DNA from: an uncultured Chloroflexia bacterium
Lineage (GTDB): Bacteria > Chloroflexota > Limnocylindria > Limnocylindrales > CSP1-4
DNA: 64,000 bases
Reading direction: 5' to 3'
Assembly (NCBI GenBank): GCA_963833225.1
Contig: CAWHXD010000019.1
Coordinates: 416,001 to 480,000 of the forward strand
The notes below the pieces were generated by a model, which saw nothing but the letters and a program-made list of their open reading frames with translations, did not search any database and was not told where the DNA came from. Shown here in pieces: positions 1,013-26,479 of the stretch; the first letter of the stretch is position 1; every line of letters begins with the position of its first letter. Both the position numbers and the translations under genes were made by a program.

Positions 1013-1432
1013 ATGCTCAAGACCCGCCTGCTTCACCCGGAGATCCTCGCCGCGCTCGGCGAGGCCGGCCACGGCGCCCAGGTGCTGATCGCGGACGGCA
1101 ACTACCCGCTGGCCACGCGCTCCAACCCCGACGCCTACCGGGTGTTCCTCAATCTCGCGCCCGGCCAGCTCACCGTCACCGACGTCCTCGACGTCATCGC
1201 CGACGCGATCCCCATCGAGGCCGCCTGCGTGATGGGCCCCGACGATGACACGGAGCCGTCGATCTACGCGGACTTCCGACGGATCCTGCCGGACACGGAG
1301 CTCCAGCGGCTGGGCCGCTTCGAGTTCTACGACATGGCCAGGGGCCCGGACACGGCGCTCGCGATCGCCACCGGCGAGCAGCGCATCTACGCCAACATCC
1401 TGCTCACCATCGGGGTGGTGATGCCCGAGTAG
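1013..1432 (+). CDS. fucU: RbsD/FucU-family sugar mutarotase
   Basis: [28 protein letters not shown]; RFEFY; [29 protein letters not shown]; directly upstream of fucI. Confidence 0.9.
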
Positions 1433-1484
1433 GGCAGGGCAGGTTTCGTTCACACCGCGTCCCAGGAACAAGAGGACCACGACC

Positions 1485-3290
1485 ATGACCACCGTCAACA
1501 CGTCCGGCCGCTTCGTCGGGGACTGGCCCAGGATCGGTATCCGCCCCGCGGTCGACGGCCGCCAGCACGGCGTCCGTGAGTCGCTCGAGGAGCAGACCCG
1601 GAACATGGCGCTCCGGACGGCGGAGCTCATCCGCGCCAACCTGCGCTACCCGGACGGCACGCCCGTGGAGGTCGTGGTCCCCGACCACAACATCGGCGGC
1701 GTGTACGAGGCGGCCAAGGTTGCCGAGCTGTTCCGCAAGGAGGGCGTTGGCGTCTCGCTGACGATCACGCCCTGCTGGTGCTACGGCTCCGAGACGATGG
1801 ACATGGATCCCCTGACCCCCAAGGCCGTATGGGGCTTCAACGGCACCGAGCGCCCGGGCGCTGTGTACCTCGCGGCGGTCCTCGCCGCCCACACCCAGAA
1901 GGGGCTGCCGGCGTTCGGCATCTACGGCCGAGACGTCCAGGACGCCGGCGACGGCACGATCCCTGACGACGTGCAGGCGAAGATCCTGCGCTTTGCGCGG
2001 GCCGGCATGGCCGCCGCGATCCTGCGCGGCAAGTCGTACCTGAGCCTCGGTGGCGTGTCCATGGGCATCGCCGGCTCGATCGTGGACCAGCCGTTCTTCG
2101 AGAAGTACCTGGGCATGCGTGTCGAGGCCGTCGACATGTCCGAGATCTACCGCCGGCTCGAGGAGGGGATCTACGACCCGGTCGAGTTCGAGAAGGGTCT
2201 CGCCTGGGCCAGGGCCAACTGCCGCGAGGGTGTGGATCGCAACCCGGCCGACAAGGCCAAGACCCGCGAGGAGCTCGACCGCGACTGGGAGGTCGTGGTC
2301 AAGATGACCCTCATCGCGCGCGATCTCCTGGTGGGCAACCCGAGACTCGCCGAGCTCGGCTTCGGCGAGGAGGCGCTGGGCCGCAACGCGATCCTGGGCG
2401 GGTTCCAGGGTCAGCGGGCATGGACCGACCACAGCCCCAACGGCGACTTCATGGAGGCGATCCTCAACTCCAGCTTCGACTGGAACGGGATCCGCGCCCC
2501 GCACATGTTCGCGACCGAGAACGACTCGCTCAACGGCGCGACGATGCTGCTCTCCTACCTGCTGACCAACCGGGCCCAGATCTTCGCGGACGTCCGCACA
2601 TACTGGAGCGCGGAGGCCGTGGAGCGGGTGACCGGGCACAGGCTCGAGGGTCTCGCCGCGGGCGGCTTCATCCACCTCATCAACTCCGGCGCGGCGACGC
2701 TCGACGCCACCGGCGCGATGACGGACGCCGACGGCAAGCCGGCCATGAAGCCGTTCTGGGACATCACCGACGGCGACGTGAAGGCCGCGCTCGCGGCCAC
2801 GACCTGGTACCCGGCCAACCGCGGCTACTTCCGCGGCGGCGGCTTCTCCAGCCAGTTCGTGTCCAAGGGCGGGATGCCCGTCACCATGGCCCGCCTCAAC
2901 CTCGTGAGCGGGACCGGACCCGTGCTCCAGATCGCCGAGGGCTGGACCGTGGACCTGCCCACGGATGTCCACGACATCCTGGACCAGCGGACGGATCCCA
3001 CCTGGCCCACCCACTGGTTCGTGCCGCGGACCACGGGCGAGGGCGTCTTCCGCGATGTCTACACCGTGATGGCCAACTGGGCCGCGAACCACGGTGCGAT
3101 CAGCTACGGCCACATCGGTGCCGACCTGATCAGCCTGGCCTCGGTGCTCCGGATCCCGGTCCACATGCACAACGTGGCCGAGGAGGATCTCTTCCGACCC
3201 AGCGCGTGGGCCAACCTGGGCACGGCCGATCCGGAGGGCGCCGACTTCCGGGCCTGCGCCAGCTTCGGCCCGCTCTACGGTCGCAAGTAG
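1485..3290 (+). CDS. fucI: L-fucose isomerase
   Basis: 601 aa. [77 protein letters not shown]. Confidence 0.97.
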
Positions 3291-3380: not shown

Positions 3381-3704
3381 TCAGTCCTGGTGGAACAGCT
3401 CGTCCATCGACGCCCACCATTCGCCCTCGGCGCGGTCGGCGAGCGGCTCCTGGAGCGGCTTGTTGACCGCCCACCACTCCTGGGTCGTGGGATCCTCGCC
3501 CATCCGGGCCATGTCTGCCTCGTAGTCCTCGCCGACGTACTCGAAGTAGCTGAACAGCCAGCCGCCGCGGTGGTAGATCGAGTAGTTGCGGATGTTGCAC
3601 TCGGTGATCTTGGCGAGCACCGCCGGCCACACCGCGGCGTGGAGCTCGCCGTACCGGGCAAGGTTCTCGGGGGGCATGCGCAGCACGCTGGCGTACCTGG
3701 TCAT
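3381..3704 (-). CDS. rhaM: L-rhamnose mutarotase family protein
   Basis: Y..LHAAVWPAVL..I..CNIRNYSIY....LFSYFEY, TQEWW, WWASMDELFHQD. ATG at 3704 follows GGAGG. Confidence 0.9.
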   Translation of the reverse strand: MTRYASVLRMPPENLARYGELHAAVWPAVLAKITECNIRNYSIYHRGGWLFSYFEYVGEDYEADMARMGEDPTTQEWWAVNKPLQEPLADRAEGEWWASMDELFHQD

Positions 3705-3785
3705 CCTGGTGCCTCCACGATGCATGGGTGGGGGATTGGCGCCCGGCGGGGAGGAGGTCCGCCGGGCGCCGTGATCGACGGAGAG

Positions 3786-4976
3786 CTATTCCGCCGGCAG
3801 ATGAAGCGGGTACGTCCCGTACTCGCGGACGAGCTTGACGATCTGGTCGTAGGTGTGACCCGACACGTCGCTCGCGACCGAGTGGTCGCTCATGAATACG
3901 TAGCCGCCGCCCTCGGCGGCGCGCAGCCGGTGGAGCACCTCGCGACGTACCTCGTCCGGATCGCCGCGCTCCCAGACGCGGATGTCGCTGTTGCCGCAGA
4001 ACGTGAGCCGATGGCCCAGCCGCTCGCGGAGCGTGACGACGTCGAGGTCCGCCTTGGCCTCGAGCGGGTTGTAGCCGTCGAGCCCGATCTCGATCATGTC
4101 CTCGAAGATCGCGTTGGCGTTGCCGCACCCGTGGTACATGACCAGCAGGCCGTGCTGGTGGGCCAGCTCGATGATCCGGGCGACCGTCGGCTTGTAGTAC
4201 TTGCGCCAGTAGGTGGGGCCCATGAACAGGCTCTTGCCGTAGGCGACGTCGCCCCAGATGACGAGCCCGTCCAGGAGGCCGTCCGCCGCCTCGATCTGGG
4301 CCTTGGCGATCTCGTAGCTGAACTCGCCGATGCGAAGCAGCTGCTCGCCGAACCGCTCCGGGAACTCGCCGGTCCACATCAGGGTGTTGAGCTGGCCCAG
4401 GAGGCGCGTGCAGATCTCGGACGCCTCCGTGACGCTGCCGAACACCGGGAAGTCCGGGTACAGCCCCTTGACGGTCTCCACCCACGGCGGGCTGTTGCGC
4501 TCGAAGCCATCGCCCACGCCGGCGATCTGGTTGTCGCCGGCCTCGAAGTAGCGGCGCCGGTCGGTCGGGTCGTCGAACTCGAACGCCTCCAGCTTCTCGA
4601 TCGTGTCCGTCTCCCAGCTCACCTGCTCGGGCATCGGCAGGTCGAAGCGCTTGCGGATCGTGGTCTCGAAGCCGGTCTTGACCACCACCTCCTCGTCGTC
4701 CTCGCGGATCGTCTCGAAGGCCCGGATGTGGGGATCCATGTTGGGGACGGTGGTGATGAAGTCGAGGTCGTAGTGGTAGTACGGATCGGCGTCGGCCGGC
4801 AGCCCCAGCTCCGTGCGCCACCGGTCACGGAACTGGCCCCAGAAGAAGTCCGTGATCGGGACGCGGTCCGCCTCCTGGTGCCCGAAGGTCTTCCGGATCC
4901 GGTCCAGCTTGGCCAGCGTCGAGGGCTTGCGGTCCGTGCCTCCGCCCCGTCCGTAGGTCTCGAACATGCCGGGCAT
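3786..4976 (-). CDS. Uroporphyrinogen decarboxylase/MtaA-fold protein (putative corrinoid methyltransferase)
   Basis: HQEADRVP, IWGDVAY...FMGP..WRKYYKP, MYHGCG (HxC Zn-type motif), GYNPLE, FCGN, GGGYVFMSDHSV. Confidence 0.85.
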   Translation of the reverse strand: MPGMFETYGRGGGTDRKPSTLAKLDRIRKTFGHQEADRVPITDFFWGQFRDRWRTELGLPADADPYYHYDLDFITTVPNMDPHIRAFETIREDDEEVVVKTGFETTIRKRFDLPMPEQVSWETDTIEKLEAFEFDDPTDRRRYFEAGDNQIAGVGDGFERNSPPWVETVKGLYPDFPVFGSVTEASEICTRLLGQLNTLMWTGEFPERFGEQLLRIGEFSYEIAKAQIEAADGLLDGLVIWGDVAYGKSLFMGPTYWRKYYKPTVARIIELAHQHGLLVMYHGCGNANAIFEDMIEIGLDGYNPLEAKADLDVVTLRERLGHRLTFCGNSDIRVWERGDPDEVRREVLHRLRAAEGGGYVFMSDHSVASDVSGHTYDQIVKLVREYGTYPLHLPAE

Positions 4977-4980
4977 CGGA

Positions 4981-5610
4981 TCAGCTCCCCGCCAACAGCT
5001 GCTTGGCCAGGTCCACCGCCGCACCCGCATCGGGAGCGAAGCCGTCGGCGCCGATCTGCTCGGCGAACTCGGGCGTGGTGGGCGCGCCACCGATCATCAC
5101 CTTGGCACCGACGTCGGCGGCCTTGATGGCCTCCACCACGGCCCGCATGTTGGGCATCGTGGTGGTCAGCAGGGCGCTGAGGCCGATCAGGCGGGCGTCG
5201 TGCTCGCGGGCGGCCTCGACGAACTTGGCGGCGGACACGTTCACCCCGAGGTCGATGACCTCGATCGCCGCTCCCTTGAGCATCATGCCGACCAGGTTCT
5301 TGCCGATGTCGTGGAGGTCGCCCTCGACGGTCCCGATCACCGCCGTGTGCTCGGGCCGGATCCCGGCCTCCACCAGGCTCGGCTCGAGGATGGCCGTGGC
5401 TTCCTTCATCGCCCTCGCGGCGATGAGCATCTCGGGGACGAAGATCTCGCCCTCCTGGAACTTGCGGCCGATGACCCCCATCGCCTCGGTCATCGCATCC
5501 AGGATCTCCTGGGCCGATACGCCCGCCGCCAGGGCCTCGGTTGTCAGCCGGGCCGCCGATGCCCGGTCGCCTGCCTCGATCGCCCTGCCCAGCTCGCCCA
5601 GGTCAGCCAT
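4981..5610 (-). CDS. Corrinoid (cobalamin-binding) protein, MtaC/MttC-like
   Basis: Cap domain IFVPEMLIAARAM; base-off motif GTVEGDLHDIGKNLV; GLSALLTTTM; MIGGAP; IGADG. Confidence 0.95.
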   Translation of the reverse strand: MADLGELGRAIEAGDRASAARLTTEALAAGVSAQEILDAMTEAMGVIGRKFQEGEIFVPEMLIAARAMKEATAILEPSLVEAGIRPEHTAVIGTVEGDLHDIGKNLVGMMLKGAAIEVIDLGVNVSAAKFVEAAREHDARLIGLSALLTTTMPNMRAVVEAIKAADVGAKVMIGGAPTTPEFAEQIGADGFAPDAGAAVDLAKQLLAGS

Positions 5611-5672
5611 GTCTGTGACTCCTCTCGATACCAGGGTCGCGGTGGCCGCTCGTGGCCCCGCTCGCCCCGGGG

Positions 5673-6995
5673 TTATGCCTTGGCCAGCCGCATGGCGACG
5701 TCGACCCACTCCCAGAGCCGTCGTGCGTCGTAGCGGATCGTGCTGACGTCCTTGAGGATCAGCTCCACCGGTGTCCCGGTGCGCCGGCACGCGTCGATCG
5801 TTGCCTGGAGCTCCTTCTCGACTGCCTCGGGCTCCCAGCTGTCCATCGCGAGGAGCGCCGGGTTGGGCTTGCGCGAGAACACGAAGTCGGGACCCATGCT
5901 CTCCGCGCCACGGTCCACGTTGACCCACGGGCACATCGAGATCTTCCGGACGTTGGGGATCTCCCGGATGATGTCGATCCGCCGGTCGAGCACGTCGCAG
6001 CAGCCGTAGTAGCCGAGCCCGAACCGCTCGTACCAGCGGACGGTGTACGGGATCTCGTACTCCTTGAACATCGCCGGCGAGGCGGAGGTGAAGACCTGCG
6101 CCATGCCCATCGTCCACAGGTCCTCGGCCCGCGGTCGCTCCGGGTCGAAGCCCTCGTGCGGCAGATCGTCGGTCCAGGCCGGCGTGCAGTGGACCGTGGA
6201 CATCGAGTGCCCGAGCAGGCCCTGCGCCTCCATCTGGTCGAGCATGCCGAGATACGCGGTCACCAGGCGGTCGATGATCCGGCGCGTATGGTCCGGGCGA
6301 TCCGCCATGTCGATCAGGATGGCCTCCGCGCCTCGCCAGAACTCGATGGTGTCCCAGAAGTTCGCCCCGCCCGCCAGCAGCTCCGTCGGCCAGTCGTGCA
6401 CCAGGGCCCGCGTCTCGGGCTGGGACTCGAGGCCGGGCCACTGGTTGGTGCTCGGCACCCAGCCCTGGAGACGGACGGGCAGCACGCCGTCGAAGATGTC
6501 GTGCGCCTGGGCCTCGATCCGGGCGGTCTCCTCGGCATCGAGCCAGACCTTCGGGGTCCGGATCTTGTCGGCGTCCGACTCGTTCGCGAGCTGGTCGATG
6601 AAGTGGTGGGAGACGATGTCGTTGCGGGCGTCGACGGCCTCGGTCTCCTCGACCATCTCGATCCCGAAGCCATCCAGGCGGAGGACCTTCGGGATGAGCA
6701 GCACCGGCTCGACCACCATGTCCGCGCGTATGTGCTCCCAGCGATACAGGGTGCGGCGAAGATCGATCTCGAGCCCGCGATTGAATGGGTCCGTGCACTG
6801 GTTGACCAGCATCGGATCATCGGCCAGCTCGTGCCAGGGCAGCTGGTCCAGCGCCACCATCGGGCGCTGCGGATGCAGGTCGTTGACCGCCTTCCAGAGC
6901 GAGATGGTCTCCTGCTGGACGGGCAGCGCCGCGATCTCGGCGACGCGGCTTCCGAGCTCCCGCAGGATCTCGCGGTCCCGGGCTACCCCGGCCAT
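5673..6995 (-). CDS. UroD/MetE-like TIM-barrel protein of unknown function (possible substrate-specific methyltransferase)
   Basis: DREILRELG.RVAEIAALPVQ, MAQVFTSASPAMFKEY, YYGCCD, RKISMCPWVN, VFSRKPNPA, ELILKDVST. Co-oriented with the corrinoid gene. Confidence 0.7.
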   Translation of the reverse strand: MAGVARDREILRELGSRVAEIAALPVQQETISLWKAVNDLHPQRPMVALDQLPWHELADDPMLVNQCTDPFNRGLEIDLRRTLYRWEHIRADMVVEPVLLIPKVLRLDGFGIEMVEETEAVDARNDIVSHHFIDQLANESDADKIRTPKVWLDAEETARIEAQAHDIFDGVLPVRLQGWVPSTNQWPGLESQPETRALVHDWPTELLAGGANFWDTIEFWRGAEAILIDMADRPDHTRRIIDRLVTAYLGMLDQMEAQGLLGHSMSTVHCTPAWTDDLPHEGFDPERPRAEDLWTMGMAQVFTSASPAMFKEYEIPYTVRWYERFGLGYYGCCDVLDRRIDIIREIPNVRKISMCPWVNVDRGAESMGPDFVFSRKPNPALLAMDSWEPEAVEKELQATIDACRRTGTPVELILKDVSTIRYDARRLWEWVDVAMRLAKA

Positions 6996-7256
6996 ATGCC
7001 ACTCCTCCAGGACGCCTGTATCGTCAACCCTGGGCCGCCGCGGGCCCGTCCGCGACACCTCAAGGGTGCAAGACTACCATAATCGGCCGTTGGTATATCG
7101 ATTTTTCGCGCCATTCGTGGCACCATTCAGGCACCGCGACGTGCGTGACCCGGGCGATCTCCGCACGAATGGGGAGGACATGAGCCAGACGCTGACAAGG
7201 CACCCGGATACGGTGAATGGAGGACCGATGGTTCGTCATGGGCCAGAAGTCACGCG

Positions 7257-7270
7257 TGATAGCGATCCCA
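7257..7270. promoter_or_regulatory. Putative LacI-type operator
   Basis: TGATAGCGATCCCA, 10/14 match to the palindrome at 27605. Lies in the divergent region upstream of larA. Confidence 0.45.
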
Positions 7271-7292
7271 GCCACTGCTCGCTGGCCGATCC

Positions 7293-8582
7293 ATGCCCGG
7301 CCACGAGGCCCGGGCTGTGACCCCGGCCACGGTCCGCCTCGCCTTTGGTCGAGATGGCCTCGAGATCGACGTGCCGGCCGGCGTGGACGTGCTCCTGCCA
7401 CGGGCCCGGGTACCGCTCGCCGACCCTGGGGCGGCGCTCCGGGCGGCGCTGGCCGCGCCGGCGACGGCCCATCCGCTGCCGGAGCTGGCGCCGATCGGCA
7501 GCACCGTGGCGGTGAGCGTCTGTGACGTCACGCGTCCGTTTCCATCGCGGGTGGTCCTCCCGGTGCTCCTCGATCAGCTCCCGGGCCGGCACGTGCGGCT
7601 GGTGATCGCCACCGGAAGTCATCGCGCGTGCACGGACCGGGAGCTCGAGGCGATGCTCGGACCCCGGGTTCTCGCCAGGTGCGAGGTGGTCCAGCATGAT
7701 GCGGATGACCCTGCCGCCCATGTCACGCTGGGAACGGTGCCCGGCTCGGATGTGCCGGCCCGCGTCGATCGCCGGTTCATCGAGGCGGATGTCCGGGTCA
7801 CGCTGGGATTCGTGGAGCCCCACTTCTTCGCGGGGTTCTCCGGCGGACCCAAGATGGTGGTTCCCGGCCTGGCCGGCATCGACACCATCCGCGAGCTGCA
7901 TTCGGTGGCCCGGATCGCCAGCCCCCACGCGACGTGGGGCGTGCTCGACGGCAACCCGGTCCATGATCCGATCCGGGCGATTGCCGCCCGCGCCGGCGTG
8001 GACTTCGCGCTCGACGTCGCGCTCGACGAGGGGAACCGGATCTCCGCCGTCTTCTCGGGGTCGCTGGAGGCCGAGCACCGCGAGGCATGCGCCGACGTCC
8101 GCCAGACGGCAATGGTCGGCGTCGCGGAGCCGTACGACGTCGTCGTCACGACCAACAGCGGGTATCCGCTGGACCAGAACCTCTACCAGTGCGTGAAGGG
8201 CCTCAAGGCCGCGGCGGGGATCGTGCGCGACGGTGGCACGATCATCCTGGCTGCGGCCTGCGAGGACGGGCTGCCAGCCCACGGCCGCTACGCGCACCTG
8301 CTGGCGAGCGCGCCCGGACCGGCCGAGTTCCTCGCGGCCCTCTCCCGAGGGGAGATCTCGGAGCGGGACCAGTGGCAGGTGCAGGTGCAGGCGGGGATCC
8401 AGGCGCGCGCTCGCGTCCTCGCCCACACGCCCGGCCTGGGCGCCGAGGATCTGCGGAGGGCGTGGCTTCAGGCGGCGGATGACGTGGCGGTCGCCCTGCG
8501 GGACGCCCTCGCGGTGGCCGGTCCGGGGGCGCGTGCGGCGATCCTGCCAGTCGGTCCCCAGACGATCGCGTATGTGACCTGA
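7293..8582 (+). CDS. larA: Nickel-pincer-dependent lactate racemase family protein (LarA/DUF2088)
   Basis: CDVTRP, IATGSHR, GFVEPHFFAGFSGGPK, PLDQNLYQCVKG. Start could be GTG at 7317. Confidence 0.9.
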   Translation: MPGHEARAVTPATVRLAFGRDGLEIDVPAGVDVLLPRARVPLADPGAALRAALAAPATAHPLPELAPIGSTVAVSVCDVTRPFPSRVVLPVLLDQLPGRHVRLVIATGSHRACTDRELEAMLGPRVLARCEVVQHDADDPAAHVTLGTVPGSDVPARVDRRFIEADVRVTLGFVEPHFFAGFSGGPKMVVPGLAGIDTIRELHSVARIASPHATWGVLDGNPVHDPIRAIAARAGVDFALDVALDEGNRISAVFSGSLEAEHREACADVRQTAMVGVAEPYDVVVTTNSGYPLDQNLYQCVKGLKAAAGIVRDGGTIILAAACEDGLPAHGRYAHLLASAPGPAEFLAALSRGEISERDQWQVQVQAGIQARARVLAHTPGLGAEDLRRAWLQAADDVAVALRDALAVAGPGARAAILPVGPQTIAYVT

Positions 8583-8592
8583 GCCCGTTCGT

Positions 8593-8621
8593 TTGACATG
8601 CCAACGTCCGCTGTCTACCGT
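8593..8621 (+). promoter_or_regulatory. Sigma70-type promoter, followed by LacI-like site GACAAACGTTGT
   Basis: TTGACA-17 bp-TACCGT, 30 bp upstream of the TTG start, which has an AGAGGAG RBS. Confidence 0.7.
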
Positions 8622-8650
8622 GGACAAACGTTGTTTCAGAGGAGCCGACC

Positions 8651-9520
8651 TTGACCGTCATCGACGCCCACCAGCACTTCTGGAACCCGAGCCGCGTCGC
8701 CTATGACTGGCTGGGACCGGATCTGGGCCCGATCAACCGGGCCATCGAGTTTGCGGACCTGGAGCCGCTGCTTGCGGCCACGGGCGTGGAACGCACGGTC
8801 CTCGTCCAGTCGGCGGACAACGCAGCCGACACCGACTTCATGTTCGAGATCGCGGCCGCGCACCCCGAGATCGCGGCCGTGGTCGGCTGGGTCCCACTCG
8901 ATGATCCGGTTGCCACGGCGGAGCGCCTCCCGGTGTTGCTCGCGAACCCGGTGTTCGCCGGGATCCGCAACCTGATCCATACGCAGCCCGATCCCGACTG
9001 GCTGCTGAGGCCCGACGTGGATGAGTCCCTGGGCCTCCTCGCTGCCCGGGACGTGCCGTTCGACGTCGTATCGGTCCTGCCCCGGCACCTGGAGCACGTC
9101 CCGACCCTGTCCGAGCGACACCCCGAGCTCCGGATGGTCATCGACCATCTCTCCAAGCCGCCCATCAAGGCCGCGAGCGACGAGCCCTGGCGGTCCCTCA
9201 TCGCTCGCGCGGCCGAGAACCCGCTCGTGTTCGCCAAGGTCTCGGGTCTGTACCCGTCCGTCGGCGACATGGCCGCCTGGACAGCGGACGACGTGCGGCC
9301 CTATCTGCACACGGCCCTCGAGCTGTTCGGCGCCAAGCGCCTCATGTTCGGTGGCGACTGGCCGATCTCGGTGCTGGCCGGTGGGTACGTGCGGGTGTGG
9401 GAGAACCTGAGCAGCCTGTTCGACGAGCTGTCGGCCGAAGACCGGGAAGCCATCCTGGGTGGGACCGCGGCGCAGTTCTATGGAATCCCGGCGGGCCGGC
9501 TCCCGGGAGGCGGCGCGTGA
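8651..9520 (+). CDS. Amidohydrolase_2 family sugar lactonase (L-fucono-1,5-lactonase-like)
   Basis: VIDAHQHFW, TVLVQS, VVGWVPL, VIDHLSKP, AKVSGL, FGAKRLMFGGDWP. Confidence 0.88.
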   Translation: MTVIDAHQHFWNPSRVAYDWLGPDLGPINRAIEFADLEPLLAATGVERTVLVQSADNAADTDFMFEIAAAHPEIAAVVGWVPLDDPVATAERLPVLLANPVFAGIRNLIHTQPDPDWLLRPDVDESLGLLAARDVPFDVVSVLPRHLEHVPTLSERHPELRMVIDHLSKPPIKAASDEPWRSLIARAAENPLVFAKVSGLYPSVGDMAAWTADDVRPYLHTALELFGAKRLMFGGDWPISVLAGGYVRVWENLSSLFDELSAEDREAILGGTAAQFYGIPAGRLPGGGA

Positions 9521-10599
9521 TCACGCGGTTTGATCCCGTCGCCGAGGCCTGCCGGATCGAGGTCCCCGACGCCCATCGACGGCCGATCGCCATCGTCGGC
9601 GCCGGCGCCATCGTGGACTTCGCGCACCTGCCGGCCTATCGCGCCGCCGGCCTCGAGGTTGCCGGGATCCACAACCACCATCCCGCGCGGGCCGTCGACG
9701 TGGCCGGCCGTCACGGTGTGCCGCGGGTCTACGAGACGCTCGAGGACCTGCTTGGCGACGACCGGGTCGAGGTGGTGGACGTCGCCGTGTCCGCGGCCGC
9801 CCAGCCCGAGATCGTGCGCCGGGCGCTCGAATCGGGGCGCCACGTGCTAGCCCAGAAGCCGTTCGCACCGGATCCGGCCACCGGCCAGGCGCTGGTGGAC
9901 CTCGCCGAGTCGCGCGGGCTGGTCCTGGTCGTGAACCAGCAGCTCCGCTTCGACGAGGGGATGGCCGCGGCCCACCGGATGGTCGAGCTGGGCTGGATCG
10001 GCGACGTCACCGCGATGTCGATCACGGTCAACATCTGGACGGACTGGCATTCCTGGCCATGGATGCTCGAGACACCCCGGCTGGAGGTGATGGTCCATTC
10101 GATCCACTATCACGACGTGATCCGCTGGTTCCTGGGCGAGCCGTCGCTCGTGTTCAGCGTCGGAGGCCGCACGCCGGGCCAGGCGCCCGTCGGGGAGACG
10201 CGGACCGTGACCACGTCCACCTATCCGTCCGGCGCGATCTCCGTGGTCCACGCCAACCACGAGAACGGCACCGGTGACAACCTCGCGACGTTCCGCATCG
10301 ATGGCTCGCGGGGTGCGATCCGGGGCACCCTGGGCCTGCTCTACGACTACCCCAGCGGGCGGCCGGACACCCTGGAGATCAGCAGCGAGGTGCTGCCGAC
10401 TGACGGCTGGGTCCCCTATCCGGTGGGCTCACGCTGGCTGCCCGACGCGTTCCTGGGGCCTATGGCGTCGCTGCTGCGGGCGGTCGCCACCGGGTCCACG
10501 CCCCGTTCCAGCGGCCGCGACAACGTGGGCACGCTGCGGCAGATCCAGCGGATCTACGAATCGATGGAGCGGGGAGCGGCGGTCCGGGTCGAGGGCTGA
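9517..10599 (+). CDS. Gfo/Idh/MocA family oxidoreductase
   Basis: IAIVGAGAI...HLPAY, HVLAQKPFA, VNQQLRF, HSIHYHD. GTGA overlap with the upstream stop. Confidence 0.9.
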   Translation: MITRFDPVAEACRIEVPDAHRRPIAIVGAGAIVDFAHLPAYRAAGLEVAGIHNHHPARAVDVAGRHGVPRVYETLEDLLGDDRVEVVDVAVSAAAQPEIVRRALESGRHVLAQKPFAPDPATGQALVDLAESRGLVLVVNQQLRFDEGMAAAHRMVELGWIGDVTAMSITVNIWTDWHSWPWMLETPRLEVMVHSIHYHDVIRWFLGEPSLVFSVGGRTPGQAPVGETRTVTTSTYPSGAISVVHANHENGTGDNLATFRIDGSRGAIRGTLGLLYDYPSGRPDTLEISSEVLPTDGWVPYPVGSRWLPDAFLGPMASLLRAVATGSTPRSSGRDNVGTLRQIQRIYESMERGAAVRVEG

Positions 10600-10610
10600 G
10601 CCGGCGCCGA

Positions 10611-11072
10611 TCAGGCGGGTGCCGACCCGCGCTTCTCGACGACGTACAGGTGGACGAGGACGAGCACCACCTCGCCGGCCTGGTTGGTCACGGTCACCGT
10701 CTCCTCGACCATGCCCAGCGCCTCGGGTCGCCGGCGGTGGTCGGCCAGGCCCGTGATCTCGGCTCGCACCGTGATCGTGTCACCGATGAACACGGGCCGC
10801 ACGAACCGGACCCGATCGTAGCCGTAGCTCATCGCCCGGGGGTTGATGTCGCCCGCCGTCATGCCCACGGCCATCGACATCACGAGCGTGCCATGTGCCA
10901 TCCGGCGCTCGAAGGCCTGCGTGGCGCACCACTCGGCGTCCATGTGGTGGGGGAAGAAGTCGCCGGTCTGCCCGGCGTGCAGGACGATGTCGGCCTCGGT
11001 CACGGTCCGGCCCGTGGTCGTCCGGCTGGTGCCGGTGACGTAGTCCTCGAAGAACGCCTCAACCGTGTTCAT
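10611..11072 (-). CDS. MaoC-family (hotdog-fold) acyl-CoA dehydratase
   Basis: FFEDY..G....[48 protein letters not shown]. Confidence 0.9.
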
Positions 11073-12217
11073 GTCGCGGTCTCCTCCTCCCGTGCCCGGG
11101 CGACCACCCGGTCGGCCGCCTCCAGGCAGGCCGCGTCGGTCAGCTCACCGCGCAGGGCCCGGTTGACCAGCCCGCCCACCTCGTCCTGGACCTGCAGCCA
11201 GCCATCGAACCGGGGCCGCACCCAGGCGCCGTCCAGCGTCCGCCGCGTGCCGCGGAAGAACCCCAGGCTGTCGGCGTCGACCGCCTCGTCGTCCCAGGCG
11301 TCGATGTTGGCCGGCTGGCCGCCGCTGGCGTAGTAGACGCCGCGCTGGACCTCGCCGCTCGCGAGCCAGAAGGCATGGTCGACGGCAATCTCCGGCTGCG
11401 GCGAGAAGGCCGACACCGCGATCCCGGCGCCACCCAGGCAGGAGCCGGCGACGCCCCGGGGACCGGCGGGCATGTCCACGTAGGCGAGGCGGTGGGCACG
11501 GAACCCGGCACGGCTGTAGTTCGTATAGCCGAAGGCGAGCGGCGCGTAGCACCAGCGATCATCAGTGGCGAGGCGTTCCGCAGCCTGGATCGGGTTCTCG
11601 TCGAGGCATGCCGGATCGACCAGCTCCGCGAGGTGGTGCAGGTCCTCGAGGATGCCCTCGCCGTCCCCGCGGGCGATGAACCCGTCCCCGGCGATCGCGG
11701 CGCCGCGGTTTGCCGCGAGCGTCAGGAAGCTCGAGATGGCGTCCACCGGCTTGGCCGGCCAGACGACCCTGCCCGTGCGTGCGAGCTCGAGCACCTCGTC
11801 CCACGTCTTCGGCGGCACGGGCAGCAGATCGGGGCGATGGATGGCCACCTGGGCCGCGGCATCGATCGCGAGGCCGTACTGGTGACCGGCGTGCGCATAG
11901 GTCGCGTGTGACGGGCCGACGGCCTGCGTCGCGAGGGCCGCAAGCTCCACGTCACGACCGCACGTGTCGAGCGCGGCGAGGAGCCCGGCTGTCGCCGCGT
12001 GCGGGATGTGCGGATGGTCGATCACCATCAGGTCGTACGTCCGGGCGAGGGTCTCGAGCGGCTGGTCGGCGAACCCCTGGAGCGATCGGGCCTCCCACTC
12101 CACCCGCACGCCGGGGTGGAGCGAGCTGTAGGCCTCCGCCGCCCCCCGCACGCTGTCCAGGCCGCGCGGATGGTCCCACGTCATGCCTCGGAGAACCGCC
12201 GGCAGCGGATCGCTCAT
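11069..12217 (-). CDS. Type-2 periplasmic-binding-fold protein lacking a signal peptide
   Basis: [55 protein letters not shown]. No hydrophobic N-terminus. ATGA overlaps on both sides. Confidence 0.8.
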
Positions 12218-13464
12218 GCGCCCGCCGCGTCGTCGATGGGACGGAGGTCCAGCTCCGCGTCGATGGACGCCGTGTGCTCGCCCAGCCGCGGGGCGCCCCG
12301 GTCGCCGCCCAGCGTGCCGTGGTCGATCCGCAGCGGGCTCCGGGTCGTGTGCAGGGTCACCTCGCCGTCGCCCGTAGCCGAGGGCCGTCGCACCACCCGG
12401 TCCATCGCCAGGGCATGGAACCCCTCGTGGCCGACGAGATCGGGCAGCGTGAGCACGGGAGCGCACCACACGTCCGCCGGCTCCAGGATGTCGAGCCAGT
12501 CGCGGGTCGGGCGCGTGGACAGGTGGGCCGCCAGCAGGTCCTCGATCCGCTCCCGCTCCGTCCACCACGTCTCGGGGTCGCCGAATGCCGACAGGGCATC
12601 GAGCCCGATGAGCTCGCCGAGCCGCGGCACCGAGTTCATCGCGAGCGCGAGGTACCCGTCCGCGGTGGGGTAGACGCCGTACGGGGCGGCGAGGAAGGCG
12701 TTGGCCCCGTGCGGTCCACCGCGGTCAACGAGCACCGACGGATCGTTCAGGTGGGCGCTGAGGAGCTCGAACTGGAGGTCGAGCATTCCCTCCATCAGGC
12801 TGGTCTCCACCAGGCCACCCTTGCCGGTGCGCTCACGGCGCAGGAGCAGCGCCGTGATGCCCTGCGCCAGGTGGACCGAGGCGAGCAGGTCCGCGATCGA
12901 CAGCCCGACCGGCACCGGCCCGTGGTCCCGGCTCCCGCTGAGCCACGGCAGGCCCGACATCGACTGCGCGAGCAGGTCCTGGCCGGGCAGGTCGCGCCAC
13001 GGCCCATCGGGCCCGTAGCCGCTCACGCTCCCGTAGACCAGGCGCGGGTTGAGCGCCCGCGCGGATTCGAAGTCCAGCCCGATGCGCTCCATGACCCCCG
13101 GCCGGAAGTTCTGGATGAGCACGTCGGCGCGGGCCACGAGCCGGCGGATGGCCGCCAGGTCGGACGCGTTCTTGAGGTCGGCGGCGTAGCTCTCCTTGCC
13201 GCGGTTCATGATCTGGAACGAGAGGGTGTCGCCGTCGAGGAACTTGCCGGCGAAGGCGAGCGTGCGCCCGATGTCGCCGACCCCGGGACGCTCGATCTTG
13301 ATCACCCGGGCCCCGAGATCGGACAGCCGCATCGCGGCGACGGGCCCGGCGAGGAACTGGCTGAAGTCGAGGACCAGGATGCCGTCCAACGGCGGGATCG
13401 GCACCTTCCGGGCTCCCTCGCGTGCGGCACCCATCCGTGCTCCTCCCTCGTCGGCTCGGTTCAT
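12214..13464 (-). CDS. CaiB/BaiF (family III) CoA transferase
   Basis: PLDGILVLDFSQFLAGP, LGARVIKIERPG, NRGKES, ADVLIQNFRPGVMERIGLD, GQDLLAQ, APRLGEHT. Confidence 0.92.
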   Translation of the reverse strand: MNRADEGGARMGAAREGARKVPIPPLDGILVLDFSQFLAGPVAAMRLSDLGARVIKIERPGVGDIGRTLAFAGKFLDGDTLSFQIMNRGKESYAADLKNASDLAAIRRLVARADVLIQNFRPGVMERIGLDFESARALNPRLVYGSVSGYGPDGPWRDLPGQDLLAQSMSGLPWLSGSRDHGPVPVGLSIADLLASVHLAQGITALLLRRERTGKGGLVETSLMEGMLDLQFELLSAHLNDPSVLVDRGGPHGANAFLAAPYGVYPTADGYLALAMNSVPRLGELIGLDALSAFGDPETWWTERERIEDLLAAHLSTRPTRDWLDILEPADVWCAPVLTLPDLVGHEGFHALAMDRVVRRPSATGDGEVTLHTTRSPLRIDHGTLGGDRGAPRLGEHTASIDAELDLRPIDDAAGA

Positions 13465-13474
13465 CACGTCCTCG

Positions 13475-14689
13475 TCAGCTCGCCGATGCCCGCTCGGCGA
13501 CCGTGACCAGCGGCTGGCAGGCCGGCCCGATGGGCTCGAAGCTCTTGTAGCCGAGGACGAACTCCTGGTGGCCCATCTGCTCGCTCGCGGTCTGGCGGCC
13601 ATCGGCCACGTCACGGACCAGCTGCACGATCTCGGCACCGACCTCCGCCAGGGTTCCCCGGCCCTCGATCACGCGCCCGGCGTTGACGTCCATGTCGTCG
13701 GCCATCCGGGCGTACGTCTCGGGGTTGGCGCAGACCTTGACGATCGGCGAGATCGCGGACCCCACGACCGAGCCGCGGCCGGTCGTGAACAGGATCATGT
13801 GGGCGCCACAGGCCATGAGCTCGGCCGCCTCGGCGTTGTCGTTGATGTTGGGGAAGCCCCACCGCACCTCGCCGTCCGGGATCACGTCGAGCAGGTAGAG
13901 GCCTGGGTGGGCCGGGATGTCGCCGGGCTTGATGATCCCGCTGATGGCTGCCCGGCCGCTCTTGGCATAGGCGCCCAGGGACTTCTCCTCGATGGTCGTG
14001 AGCCCGCCCTCGGCGTTGCCGGCGGCGAAGCTCCCGTGCCCGAGCACGTTGTAGTAGGCCTCCGCCTTGTGCACGGCGCCCACGAGGGCCTGGCCCAGGT
14101 CCGGGGTGATCGCGCGCTCCGCCATCCGGTACTCGCAGCCGATGAGCTCGCCGGTCTCCTCGAAGATCGCGACCGCGCCGGCCGCCACCAGCTGGTCGAA
14201 CGCGAGGCCGACCGCCGGGTTGGCCGTGATGCCGCTGGTGCTGTCGGAGCCCCCGCAGATGGTGCCGATGACCAGGTCGGAGAGGTCCATCGGCACCCGC
14301 GGGACGCTGGCGATCTCGTTGATGGCCTGCCGGACCCAGGCCCGTCCGGCCTCGATCGTGGCTCGCGTGCCACCCGCGTGCTGGACGACCAGCGTGTGCA
14401 CCGGGCGGCCGCTCGCCGCGACGGTCCGCGCGAGCTCGGCCCGGTCGAACCCCTCGCAGCCCAGCGAGACGATCAGCACCGCACCGACGTTGGGATGGGT
14501 CGCGAGCCGGTGGAGCATCAGCGCCCCGTAGTCGTTGGGATAGCAGCCGCCGAACCCGATCACGTGGACGTCGTCCTCGAGCCCGCTCGCGATGCGGGTG
14601 GCGACGTGGTGGGAGCACTCGACCGTGTAGATCACCGCGACGACGTTGCGGATGCCCTTGCGGCCGTCGGACCGGAGGAACCCCTGCAT
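13475..14689 (-). CDS. UxaA/GarD/SuyB-family dehydratase, large subunit
   Basis: GFLRSDGRKGIRN, HPNVGAVLIVSLGCE, CGGSDSTSGITANP, GNAEGGLTTIEEKSLG, FTTGRG, DMDVNAG. Confidence 0.92.
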   Translation of the reverse strand: MQGFLRSDGRKGIRNVVAVIYTVECSHHVATRIASGLEDDVHVIGFGGCYPNDYGALMLHRLATHPNVGAVLIVSLGCEGFDRAELARTVAASGRPVHTLVVQHAGGTRATIEAGRAWVRQAINEIASVPRVPMDLSDLVIGTICGGSDSTSGITANPAVGLAFDQLVAAGAVAIFEETGELIGCEYRMAERAITPDLGQALVGAVHKAEAYYNVLGHGSFAAGNAEGGLTTIEEKSLGAYAKSGRAAISGIIKPGDIPAHPGLYLLDVIPDGEVRWGFPNINDNAEAAELMACGAHMILFTTGRGSVVGSAISPIVKVCANPETYARMADDMDVNAGRVIEGRGTLAEVGAEIVQLVRDVADGRQTASEQMGHQEFVLGYKSFEPIGPACQPLVTVAERASAS

Positions 14690-14693
14690 GCGG

Positions 14694-14999
14694 TCAGGCC
14701 TCCCCTCGCGCGTGCGTGCGCATGTAGATGCTGGTGAGGTTGTGGGTGTGGATCAGCTCGCCGCGGGTGACCGGCTGCGTCGTCCGTCCGATGGGCATCC
14801 CGTACCGGATCGCGTCGGTTCCCTGGGCGAGGTCCAGGGCAGCGACCTTGAACCCCAGTGGCAGCGGGACCTGCGTCTCGACGCTGACCCCGTCGACCAT
14901 CATCCGCTCGCCGGCGGCGATGGCGGCGATCACGATCAGCACGTTGTCCCCGTCCGCGAGCCGGAGCAGCCGGGGATCGGATCCGCCCGCGTCGCTCAC
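14694..14999 (-). CDS. SAF-domain small subunit of split UxaA/SuyA-type dehydratase
   Basis: DNVLI, GFKVA..DLAQG..AIRYGMPIG......RGELIHTHNL. Confidence 0.88.
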   Translation of the reverse strand: MSDAGGSDPRLLRLADGDNVLIVIAAIAAGERMMVDGVSVETQVPLPLGFKVAALDLAQGTDAIRYGMPIGRTTQPVTRGELIHTHNLTSIYMRTHARGEA

Positions 15000-15685
15000 A
15001 GGACGTGCCACCGTTCCCAGACCTCGCGCAGGCTCGCACCCCCGAGGAGCTCCCCGAGGACCGACCGCTCGGCGGTTGCCCGGGCGGTGGCTCGCGCCAG
15101 GACCTCGGCCTCGACGGCGGCCGGCACCACGACCACGCCGTCATCGTCGGCAAGCACGAGGTCGCCGGGCGCGACGAGCACACCGCCGCAGCGGACGGGT
15201 TCGCCGGTCGAGACCACGCGCATCCGCCCCCGGAAGTCGACCGGCCGTGAGCCGGGCGCGAAGACGTCAAACCCGACGGACCGGATCTTGGCCACGTCGC
15301 GGACCGGGCCGTCGCAGACCGCGCCAGCAGCCCCGTGGCCCTTGGCGGCCGCCGAGAACAGCTCGCCCCAGTAGGCCGTCCGCAGATCACCCCCGGTGGC
15401 GATCACGGCGAGCGAGCCGTTGTCGAGCCCGTCGATGAAGTCCATCACGGCATCGTACGGGTTGTCGGGGTTCGTCTCAGTCGGGGCGAACTGGACCGTC
15501 CGGGCGCGCCCAACGGCTCGAGCGCCCGTCACCAGGGGCGCGATGGCCGGGATCATGACCTGCGCCCGGACCCCGAGCGTGTCGAGCGAATCGGACACGA
15601 TCGCCGACGTGAGCGCGGCCGCAAGCTGGGTGGGCAGATCCTCGAAGCGAGCCGCACGACCCTGGACATTCGTTTGCTCAGCCAT
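14996..15685 (-). CDS. RraA/HMG-aldolase family protein
   Basis: SAIVSDSLD, GRARTV, AYWGEL, GAVCDGPVRD, VAPGDLVLADDDGVVVVP. Confidence 0.9.
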   Translation of the reverse strand: MAEQTNVQGRAARFEDLPTQLAAALTSAIVSDSLDTLGVRAQVMIPAIAPLVTGARAVGRARTVQFAPTETNPDNPYDAVMDFIDGLDNGSLAVIATGGDLRTAYWGELFSAAAKGHGAAGAVCDGPVRDVAKIRSVGFDVFAPGSRPVDFRGRMRVVSTGEPVRCGGVLVAPGDLVLADDDGVVVVPAAVEAEVLARATARATAERSVLGELLGGASLREVWERWHVL

Positions 15686-23429: not shown

Positions 23430-23504
23430 GTGTGGCCTCCCCAATGTGACCGGACGACACCCGCAGGGCGACGGCCCGCTTCGGGCGGCGCAGGTGCCGC
23501 GGTC

Positions 23505-24827: not shown

Positions 24828-25649
24828 CTAGAACCCGCGCAGGCCGGTGCTGGTCCGGGCGGGGAGGCCCGCGTGGGGCACCCGCCTGAGGACCACGTAC
24901 TCGATCCCGTGCTCCCGACAGAACTCGCGCTTCTCCGGCTGGTCGCCATCCTCGTTGACGACGTAGAACGCCGGCCGGATCGCATCGATCTCGGGGTCGG
25001 CGTCCATCCATCCCTCGCCCGACGAGACGAGGCACCGGTGGACGCTGTCCACGGCGCCGACCATGTAGCGCCGCTCATCCTCGTGCTGCAGCGGGTGCCC
25101 GGGGCCTTTGAGCAGCTCCACGTTCCTGTCGCTGCCGACGACCGCGTACAGGGCTCCGTACTCGGCCGCGTCCATGAAGAACCGGATGTGGCCCGAGTGG
25201 AGCCAGTCGTAGCAGCCGGTGACCACGACCCGCGGTTTGCCTTCCGGGGGCGGCGGAGGCTCGCTGACCGGGAACCCGGCGCGGGCCTGCCGGCTCACGG
25301 TTCGGCAGCCGACGCCGTGCGCCTCGACCGCGGATCTCAGGGTCGGCTCGTCATCCTCCTCGCGCACGACGAGCGCGGAGCCGGCGGCCGCCAGGGCGTC
25401 GAGGGTGGCGGGTTCCCCGGTGAGCGACCGGTCCACGATCTCCGTGCTCGCCACCCAGCGGATGGACTCGGCGAGGAACAGCCGCTCGGCGGCCGGGAAG
25501 GCGGGCGGTGTGCCCAGGCGTTCGGTCACCAGCGCGTCGGATGGGATCCGCACGTGCAGAGGCCCCAGCGATGCCGCCTCCTCGAGGAAGCGCACGTCGT
25601 CGGATCGGAGGTTGTCGAGGGTGGTCTCGACCACCGCGGATCCCCTCAC
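24828..25649 (-). CDS. Cytidylyltransferase-like (HxGH) nucleotidyltransferase with tandem domains
   Basis: C-terminal domain VVVTGCYDWLHSGHIRFF, VGSDRNV..LKG, RTST; degenerate N-terminal copy TTLDNLRSDDVRFLEEA. Confidence 0.82.
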   Translation of the reverse strand: MRGSAVVETTLDNLRSDDVRFLEEAASLGPLHVRIPSDALVTERLGTPPAFPAAERLFLAESIRWVASTEIVDRSLTGEPATLDALAAAGSALVVREEDDEPTLRSAVEAHGVGCRTVSRQARAGFPVSEPPPPPEGKPRVVVTGCYDWLHSGHIRFFMDAAEYGALYAVVGSDRNVELLKGPGHPLQHEDERRYMVGAVDSVHRCLVSSGEGWMDADPEIDAIRPAFYVVNEDGDQPEKREFCREHGIEYVVLRRVPHAGLPARTSTGLRGF

Positions 25650-26420
25650 GCCGTCCGGACCCGCACGCCGGCCGAACCCGCCGGGGCCGTCTCCGAGGCC
25701 ACGATCACGTACCCGCCACCACAGCCGGAGAGCATCGCCCCGGCGTGCTCGGTGGCGTAGGCGGCCACCAGGGCCAGCAAGTCGATCGTGATCGTTGGGT
25801 GGACATAGACCTGGGGCAGGAGCGCGTCCCAGGCACGGGTGGTCTCGTTGAGCGACTCGCCGAGCGCCCGGAGGTCCATGGCCAGGATCGCGTCGTAGCA
25901 GGCGCGGCCGCTGGCGCTCAAGCGGGCGATCCACGCCGGGTCGAGTCGCTTGACCCCCAGCGGGGCGTATCCCGGCGGGCGCTGCCCGATGGGCACGAGG
26001 TGGATGACCCGCTCCAGCCAGGCCAGCGTCTCGGGATCGGTGGTGGATTCCACGCGGGATGGGAACCAGCCGCCTTCAACGGCGGCGTCGTAGTCGAGGC
26101 GGCTGATGCCCGGGTAGATCAGGCCGCACATGTCCTGCGAGCCAGATGGCTCGGCGAGGTTGGCGTTCTCGGCGGCGTACAGCTCTCGGACCAGGCTGGC
26201 CGGCGTCCGGTCGGCCGGAAACGCGTCGCCCCACAGCGCCTGGGCCGCCACGCGGGTCCCGGTCGCCATCCCGCACCGATCCATGTAGCGGACGGTGGGC
26301 TGCAGCGAGACCACGACCATGGAGCCCGGCGGCTCGGGGTTGACCGCCGACAGCCAGGGCTGGTCGATCCAGCCGCCGGCCATCTGCAGCCGATAGGGGA
26401 GGCTCCCGATCGTTCCGCGC
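25646..26420 (-). CDS. Divergent GHMP-superfamily sugar kinase-like protein (start uncertain)
   Basis: LPYRLQMAGGWIDQP (cf. PxRxxxxGGxxD), SGSQD, AMLSGCGGGYVI. Similarity begins upstream of ATG 26383. Confidence 0.72.
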
Positions 26421-26479
26421 AGGACGGCGGTTCGCGGGCGTCGCAGCCGAAGCGGATGCCGCCGGACCGGCCACGGTCG

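Follow-up and report, generated by a model that had tools for sequence, protein, structure and literature searches.

Which methyl group would a corrinoid methyltransferase module remove in the middle of a deoxy-sugar catabolic island? The question is raised by four minus-strand genes at positions 3381–6995 of a 64,000-nucleotide stretch of DNA from an uncultured Chloroflexia bacterium. This whole stretch, called here the window, is contig C19:416001–480000 of the genome that we analysed (3.89 Mb, 86% complete). We refer to the gene products, in order of transcription, as A, B, C and D. A preliminary description of the window had proposed B12-dependent demethylation of methylated deoxyhexoses, rhamnose among them. 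Our data retain a corrinoid system tied to deoxyhexose catabolism and give up rhamnose, since D and the GH29, GH95 and FucI genes found near such modules point to fucose. That we deal with a corrinoid methyltransferase system is highly probable. The reading we favour, at a probability of about 0.6, is that the operon encodes the substrate-specific part of a corrinoid-dependent O-demethylase acting on methylated L-fucose-type sugars, from which the methyl group passes to folate. Demethylation without oxygen is plausible.

The operon and its proteins

All four genes are intact open reading frames with a Shine-Dalgarno-like motif each, and the A–B, B–C and C–D intergenic gaps measure 62, 4 and 81 bp. 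The operon suggested in the preliminary description is thus confirmed as real and intact. Its carrier, B (4981–5610, minus strand; 209 aa), had been called a stand-alone DxHxxG corrinoid protein, and rightly so: it matches Pfam B12-binding (PF02310) and B12-binding_2 (PF02607), that is, a base-off/His-on domain with a cap, and has DLHDIG at residues 98–103. D98-x-H100-x-x-G103, S145-x-L147 and G174-G175 are invariant in 16/16 aligned sequences. The best NCBIfam match is MtgC-type, with 183.6 bits, under the cut-off of 370. Judged by its sequence, B is a complete corrinoid carrier protein.

C (3786–4976, minus strand; 396 aa) is a URO-D-superfamily protein distant from MtaA and a candidate methyl-donor:corrinoid methyltransferase (MT1) for a fucose-type substrate. 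PF01208 (URO-D) matches it with E = 9e–19 and 68 bits, over profile positions 130–346 only. The nearest solved relative is MtaA, by sequence (E = 4e–5) and by profile (2e–7), and MtaA (4ay7) is also the top fold match of the C model (E = 5e–13, 15% identity by structure). Nevertheless, C scores far below the MtaA/CmuA cut-offs (TIGR01463, 30.8 versus 235.4; NF004889, 47.7 versus 244). The earlier label of an MtaA-like protein with an HGC motif therefore fits its nearest relative and its motif at residues 282–284, not its score against MtaA-type families. H282-G-C284 and S363-D364-H365 are invariant in 41/41 sequences, and H282 and C284 align with the HIC motif of MtaA. The zinc site of MtaA consists of His-x-Cys plus a distal Cys; at the distal position C apparently has S-D-H365 instead of this Cys, as judged by strand order and not by coordinates. 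HemE was rejected as an identity of C: NCBIfam gives no HemE row, the URO-D match is partial, and a HemE-like gene sits on contig C17 (E = 1e–122).

D (3381–3704, minus strand; 107 aa) belongs to the RhaM family (Pfam rhaM, E = 1.5e–29) and had been described as L-rhamnose mutarotase. It is instead closest to the L-fucose mutarotase (FucM) type: its sole PDB matches are the L-fucose mutarotase structures 7BYU/7BYW, over the full length and with E = 4e–32. Canonical RhaM was rejected on the same grounds and on a score of 30.5 bits against the TIGR02625 (RhaM) cut-off of 99.6. The genome has its own rhaM as a separate gene, 35% identical to D, while mutarotases beside C orthologues of other lineages are 51–65% identical to D and 27–38% to the genome's rhaM. 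Rhamnose as the main substrate class was dropped because of this match of D, despite the rhamnose operon that immediately precedes the window.

A (5673–6995, minus strand; 440 aa) is another candidate MT1, from a family without a name. It gave no sequence match in Pfam, NCBIfam or the PDB, the latter searched with the single sequence and with a profile, and an ESM Atlas search returned only clusters without a name or labelled URO-D. The AlphaFold2 (AF2) model of A (pLDDT 93.8) has the UroD/MtaA TIM-barrel fold. Foldseek matches range from E = 2e–7 to 7e–5, including UroD at 2e–7 and MtaA (4ay8) at 6e–6; VIA comparison gives Z 17.8 with UroD (root-mean-square deviation 4.2, 290 residues aligned), Z 15.9 with MtaA (4.1, 284 aligned) and Z 11.3 with MetE. 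The identity of A and MtaA by structure is 10–12%. A is thus 'UroD-like' by predicted fold only. Of the 'UroD/MetE-like' description the first half holds (Z 15.9–17.8, albeit with no sequence match), and MetE lies well lower; A as MetE was rejected also on the lack of any Meth_synt_2 match genome-wide. The YGCC motif is at residues 330–333. E76, D92, W294, Q300, G331-C332-C333 and S374 are invariant in 230/230 sequences of the family, and a metal site of A would be built from Cys and carboxylate ligands. Profile–profile comparison detects no similarity between A and C (probability 2%), so their residues cannot be mapped onto each other. Among 8000 candidates scored, the A and C families have at least 2793 and at least 4938 relatives, respectively.

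Modelling supports binding of A to B. In three ESMFold2 runs the interface score ipSAE was 0.78, 0.79 and 0.79, and the best of 3 controls scored 0.00; the runs share at least 94% of contacts, with partner pLDDT of at least 89. The mark applied to ipSAE is met by 116/157 solved complexes and 2/215 mismatched pairs, figures that apply only approximately to the alignments used here. At the predicted interface, cap residues 56–66 and 101–105 of B, invariant at 57–63 and 101–105, lie beside the cobalt ligand His100.

Linkage of C to a fucose-type mutarotase

C occurs in 8/61 genomes of the genus, in 9/301 genomes of a Planctomycetota-centred sample (centred on planctomycete G257) and in 4/351 genomes across Chloroflexota; the distribution of the module is patchy. 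Outside the genus, a D-type mutarotase lies within three genes of C in 10/11 loci (one fused, three near-identical neighbours), on a background in this genome of 2 such genes among 3455. Neighbourhood had been named beforehand as a check, and C orthologues indeed stand beside fucose-type mutarotases across two phyla. No other observation speaks as strongly for a fucose-type substrate. In the exception, L156, the C gene contains an internal stop, and the locus comes from the sole such genome without A and RACE matches. Other neighbours of C are GH29 (L155) and GH95 (L161) fucosidases, RhaT (L154) and sugar ATP-binding cassette (ABC) transporters.

In the close group of 11 C loci, the carrier gene is adjacent in 11/11, the mutarotase is present in 6/11 and fucI in 4/11; of the five loci without the mutarotase, four are contigs shorter than 6 kb. 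Outside the genus the carrier shares the C operon in L163 only (1/11), and all 5 such genomes tested hold a carrier and a RACE activator. A is also carried by 8/9 C-positive genomes of the 301-genome sample, and A, C, mutarotase and ABC transporter genes stand jointly in four loci (L155, L158–L160). A is missing from three loci (L139, L141 and L142) that combine the mutarotase, the carrier and C, and it is unmatched in the whole of genome G053.

Two observations on C loci should be mentioned. A third URO-D subfamily, which may take another methyl position, recurs beside C and the mutarotase (L155:6259–7302, L161:2612–3661, L162:7411–8454, L163:6709–7782). In genome G002 (L104:1604–2606), C is apparently minus its middle (residues ∼68–337), with its start in frame with the corrinoid gene, and a different URO-D gene stands upstream of A.

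Distribution of A and its carrier

A is present in 24/61 genomes of the genus; a class-wide search found it in 4/201 genomes, all of them from the same genus. Linkage was counted in six frames, as genes are frameshifted in L130, L133 and L142. The 39 A loci of the genus (36 plus three in the genome of the window) have a corrinoid gene within ∼2.5 kb in 27 cases, and several of the misses are at contig ends. In 22 loci A is surrounded by IolE-like, IolD or IolB genes, in most cases together with sugar ABC transporters, and MeTr-like, FolD or Fhs genes are close to A–B pairs in L105, L120, L121, L132, L134 and L136. In a tree of 116 A proteins, the window protein belongs to a clade of 7 rows (support 100). 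Two inositol clades are separate from it: one has 13 rows (99), the other, which is very distant, 7 rows (100). The pairing with the carrier recurs in all three. The carriers of sugar loci group together (28 rows, 95/97), and the MttB-linked carriers fall elsewhere. Subclades within the sugar-locus carrier clade mirror the A clades, a pattern that would look identical under block inheritance.

The genome of the window has two more carrier + A-family pairs, at contig C8:590.8–592.8 kb (L017) and C19:194.1–196.0 kb (L019), both read as frameshifted. The former terminates an iolD/iolE/iolG operon. Next to the latter, and likewise in L121, are genes for a cytochrome P450 with its reductase and a PanB-like gene.

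RACE accompanies A: it is found in 28/28 A-positive and 73/273 A-negative genomes of the 301-genome sample, where kin are not independent, and in 24/24 A-positive and 26/37 A-negative genomes of the genus. All 5 tested genomes with a distant A hold a carrier, RACE and 5–71 URO-D copies. In these genomes (G255–G259; L005–L008, L010), 5 to 71 URO-D-family matches stand against 1–4 B12-binding_2 matches each. When 112 of the 225 genes that neighbour distant A genes were scanned with Pfam, the outcome was a mixed set with ∼19 carbohydrate-related genes; being uncontrolled, it is not used as support.

Partners in trans and the fate of the methyl group

According to the preliminary description, neither a RACE activator nor a pterin-binding methyltransferase (MT2) is encoded in the window, and an activator was to be sought in the genome. 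Genome-wide family searches put all matches elsewhere. RACE matches are at contig C19:329–330.7 kb and, as a RACE–MttB fusion, on contig C14 at ∼56 kb; pterin-binding MT2-like genes are at C19:332.5–333.6 kb and C14:58 kb. The C19 cluster (329–334 kb), ∼90 kb from the operon, has the order MttB, corrinoid protein, MttB, RACE, methylenetetrahydrofolate reductase (MTHFR), MT2, DUF1638 and a further URO-D gene. On C14 (54354–57938, L022) one 1194-aa frame fuses the activator to MttB and adjoins the pterin-binding MT2 and corrinoid genes.

FolD and Fhs are encoded on contig C5, both read as frameshifted. There are also two homocysteine S-methyltransferase domains and split methionine-synthase domains. 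MetE and the acetyl-CoA synthase CdhC are unmatched in this genome, at 86% completeness, and on the latter we rejected an acetogenic methyl sink. Because MT2, MTHFR, FolD, Fhs and homocysteine-methyltransferase domains are all encoded, the methyl group can, by gene content, be oxidised to formate or used for methionine.

Proposed pathway and its alternatives

2-O-Methyl-fucose occurs in pectin rhamnogalacturonan II (RG-II), and methylated inositols other than pinitol occur in plants. In the pathway that we infer, its direction, ether substrate and use of distant partners included, a methyl-fucose such as 2-O- or 3-O-methyl-L-fucose would be imported. C, with A presumably serving a second position or a second methylated polyol, would use a metal or acid site to activate the ether oxygen, and CH3+ would be passed to Co(I) on B. 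The freed sugar would be anomerised by D or FucU and enter FucI or the neighbouring oxidative fucose route. The pterin-binding MT2 encoded ∼90 kb away would unload CH3-B to methyl-tetrahydrofolate (CH3-THF), which would either supply methionine synthesis or be converted to formate by oxidation through MTHFR, FolD and Fhs, and RACE of the same distant cluster would re-reduce Co(II).

Several points weigh against this pathway. An alkyl ether is a poorer leaving group, and other methyltransferase–corrinoid complexes have been solved, so that the score of the A–B model may come partly from likeness to them. The His of the MtaA HxC motif is replaced in A by Y/F (230/230 sequences). Most A copies of the genus are in inositol-type operons, which makes a fucose-type substrate of A at the window locus less certain. 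Scans of metagenomes and genomes gave 83 distant A loci, of which none has a corrinoid gene and one has a mutarotase. Sugar enrichment beside distant A genes is weak: carbohydrate genes make up 17/71 neighbours of 20 A loci of the planctomycete sample versus 7/68 in 20 arbitrary control stretches of the same genomes (p = 0.04), yet they occur at 11/20 A loci versus 6/20 controls (p = 0.2), and without sulfatases and Zn-dehydrogenases the count is 10/71 versus 7/68 (p = 0.6). The operator match described below is modest. Finally, the characterised UroD-fold MT1s in the literature, as far as the available texts describe them, act on aryl ethers, halides or thiols.

This last point bears on the most viable alternative, in which a corrinoid methyltransferase takes another donor: a methyl glycoside, methanol from glycan methyl esters, or an S-methyl, N-methyl or aromatic group arriving with fucosylated glycans. 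UroD-fold MT1s are known for aryl ethers and halides (available text of PMC13222342), and release of one anomer from an O1-methyl glycoside would explain why the tightest partner of C is a mutarotase; the neighbourhood itself fails to separate these donors. Nevertheless, we consider such a donor unlikely: aromatic-degradation or esterase genes do not recur beside C, and separate A clades track separate sugar operons. Moreover, methanol is handled by MtaB, of a different family, and ordinary glycosidases can open methyl glycosides.

A little less likely again is a self-contained triad, the MT1/corrinoid/MT2 arrangement of the preliminary description, in which A takes the donor methyl and C, MtaA-like, moves it from CH3-B to a thiol (homocysteine, a coenzyme M (CoM)-like thiol or sulfide). 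It draws on MtaA being the closest solved relative of C by sequence and fold, on the retained HxC motif, on the unusual conservation of C (66–70% across phyla), and on the co-occurrence of A and C in 8/9 C-positive planctomycete-sample genomes and at four shared loci. The triad would, however, leave an MT2 without its MT1 in the B–C–D operons lacking A and in G053. Conversely, A–B pairs without C recur in inositol operons, with pterin MT2, FolD or Fhs nearby. C tracks the fucose mutarotase, like a substrate-side enzyme, and scores far under MtaA-type cut-offs. Because A and C each occur with the carrier and without the other, the data favour two donor-side enzymes with B in common over an MT1/MT2 pair.

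Two further explanations are very improbable. In the reverse, biosynthetic direction, methyl from CH3-THF would go via B onto sugars for cell-surface glycans; a block of cytidylyltransferase-like, GHMP-like, epimerase and GMP/PMI genes under the same operator motif travels with the clade, but it is missing from the 11 loci outside the genus, LacI-controlled importers, glycosidases and catabolic enzymes surround the module at other loci, and biosynthetic O-methylation is normally based on S-adenosylmethionine. That A and C are UroD-fold sugar enzymes without methyl chemistry (decarboxylase, epimerase or hydrolase) and the carrier gene a passenger would account for a corrinoid neighbour in just 0/83 distant A and 1/11 distant C loci, but conflicts with carrier and RACE elsewhere in 10/10 such genomes tested, with RACE in 28/28 A-positive genomes, with an A–B model that passes alongside its controls, and with carrier clades that mirror A clades.

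Returning to the O-demethylase for methylated fucose, a broader and more tentative generalisation, to which we give somewhat less than even odds, would make A and C the first recognisable representatives of a large class of B12-dependent, O2-independent sugar and cyclitol O-demethylases. Each UroD-fold subfamily would take one methyl ether: methyl-fucose in the case of C, and a second position or O-methyl-inositols (pinitol, for example) in the case of the A clades. The 5–71 URO-D paralogues of planctomycete, armatimonad and spirochaete genomes would then be a set of demethylases that all deliver to the same one or two carriers.

Regulation

The divergent gap between A and larA contains two blocks that are conserved in the relative locus L002. 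The block at 7257–7271 is a LacI-type operator candidate with 14.3 bits in a matrix trained without it, ranking 10 of 39 sites of at least 11 bits in the 3.89 Mb; five non-training sites outscore it. The same motif is found at four other promoters of the island (15776, 24716, 27605 and just upstream of lacI–fucU–fucI), and the A promoter in L001 carries a 17.9-bit site. The second block, 19 bp at 7091–7109 and ∼100 bp upstream of A, is identical in L002 and scores 0.5 bits against the LacI matrix; it is a candidate promoter or site of a second regulator. The LacI-like site noticed earlier in this gap is matched by the first block and not by the second. With this matrix no site was found before the B–C–D operons of L139 and L141 (best below 3 bits). 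Co-regulation of the operon with the fucose genes seems likely from these motifs.

A second type of palindrome, GGA[C/T]AAACG[A/T]TTG..., occurs in the window at 8621–8637 and ∼23477–23493 and in L001 near 7925 and 11455. It precedes lactonase and aldo-keto reductase genes and, in L001, A, which suggests a second LacI regulon.

Relation to known systems

Methoxylated aromatics and haloalkanes are established substrates of UroD-fold MT1s, some of which have zinc and others not, according to the available text of PMC13222342. The OdmB, VdmB, MtvB, MtoB and CdmB systems, as described in parts of PMC13222342 and PMC8630106, likewise consist of a UroD-fold donor enzyme, a stand-alone corrinoid protein, a pterin MT2 and an ATP-dependent activator, and the methyl group ends on THF. 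The locus studied here differs in having two unrelated UroD-fold families, A among them without a Pfam match, in having MT2 and activator in trans, and in a fucose/inositol catabolic context that implies alkyl rather than aryl ethers. It is a variant within an established architecture, with a probable new substrate class.

Type 1 mlp clusters with MtaA/MtbA (Kountz and Balskus, PMC10418091, main text) resemble it in that a corrinoid gene is accompanied by several genes of the UroD family while a THF methylase is missing; C also keeps HxC. They are defined by a Ram/RACE gene inside and at least two proteins >25% identical to CoM methyltransferase. Here, by contrast, the operon has no Ram/RACE gene (the nearest is ∼90 kb away), A has no MtaA sequence match (10–12% by structure) and C reaches 15% by structure. 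The words sugar, carbohydrate and inositol do not occur in the main text of that paper (word search).

A parallel in substrate is the P450 CYP236A, a 6-O-methyl-D-galactose demethylase that removes a monosaccharide O-methyl ether for catabolism and clusters with glycan genes (PMC6292453, available text). It requires O2 and releases formaldehyde, whereas the system proposed here would need no O2 and retain the methyl group on B12/folate. MtgBCD of Ruegeria pomeroyi (PMC12478193, available text) is, similarly, a split corrinoid system in an aerobic heterotroph, shared by demethylation and methionine synthesis; in the present genome (86% complete), too, methionine-synthase domains are split, and neither MetE nor acetyl-CoA synthase is matched. 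The MT1 of the Ruegeria system, however, is of the MttB family with glycine betaine as donor, and the MttB-linked carriers of our genome fall outside the sugar-locus carrier clade. FucM opens a non-phosphorylating fucose route (PMC11199699, available text); D matches it by sequence (PDB 7BYU) and would differ in sharing an operon with a corrinoid module. Demethylation of pinitol in fungi is ascribed to pisatin-demethylase-type enzymes, and none was found needed in Erwinia (PMC9788770, available text). For corrinoid demethylation of sugars or cyclitols we found no description in the literature covered, mainly open-access main texts, which does not establish its absence from print.

Methylated sugars are described as resisting gut and marine degradation, and the carbohydrate demethylase of the literature covered is an O2-dependent P450 (PMC6292453, available text). 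If our reading is true, the corrinoid route carries a known architecture from aryl ethers, amines and halides to sugar alkyl ethers, gives a function to two widespread families annotated as hypothetical or haem enzymes, ties glycan turnover to folate one-carbon metabolism and B12 demand, and offers a regioselective sugar-deprotecting biocatalyst. If the broad class is also true, it would be a missing anoxic route for methylated glycans. With enzyme, carrier and a mutarotase that hints at the substrate all in a single operon, the locus lends itself well to testing.

Neighbouring genes of the island

The flanks of the operon are as first described. To its left, a fucU-like mutarotase gene (PF05025) and the L-fucose isomerase gene fucI (1039 bits, cut-off 775) lie at 1013–3290 on the plus strand in the order lacI–fucU–fucI, convergent with the module; fucI also adjoins the module in L001, L003 and L139. 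The divergent plus-strand operon at 7317–10599 encodes, by NCBIfam scores, a LarA-like racemase, an L-fucono-1,5-lactonase-like amidohydrolase and a Gfo/Idh/MocA dehydrogenase, all below cut-off (431.5/460, 189.7/400 and 69.8/355 bits). Farther right are MaoC, CoA-transferase, UxaA-like dehydratase and RraA-type aldolase genes, a sugar ABC transporter and additional LacI genes. Taken together, the genes at 7317–15685 (LarA, lactonase, Gfo, MaoC, CoA-transferase III, a split UxaA-type dehydratase and RraA-type aldolase, all below NCBIfam cut-offs) are reminiscent of a non-phosphorylating route for deoxyhexoses that includes a CoA branch.

An alanine racemase gene (28746–30039), like FolD and Fhs (contig C5:63.8–66.5 kb), reads as frameshift-split, and these splits are probably assembly indels. 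The block at 24828–27541 (minus strand) and from ∼27600 (plus strand) comprises cytidylyltransferase-like, GHMP-kinase-like (without a name), NAD epimerase and GMP/PMI genes. It shares the LacI-type operators and accompanies the module clade in L001, L024, L104 and L142; it may serve nucleotide-sugar salvage of the sugar on which the module acts.

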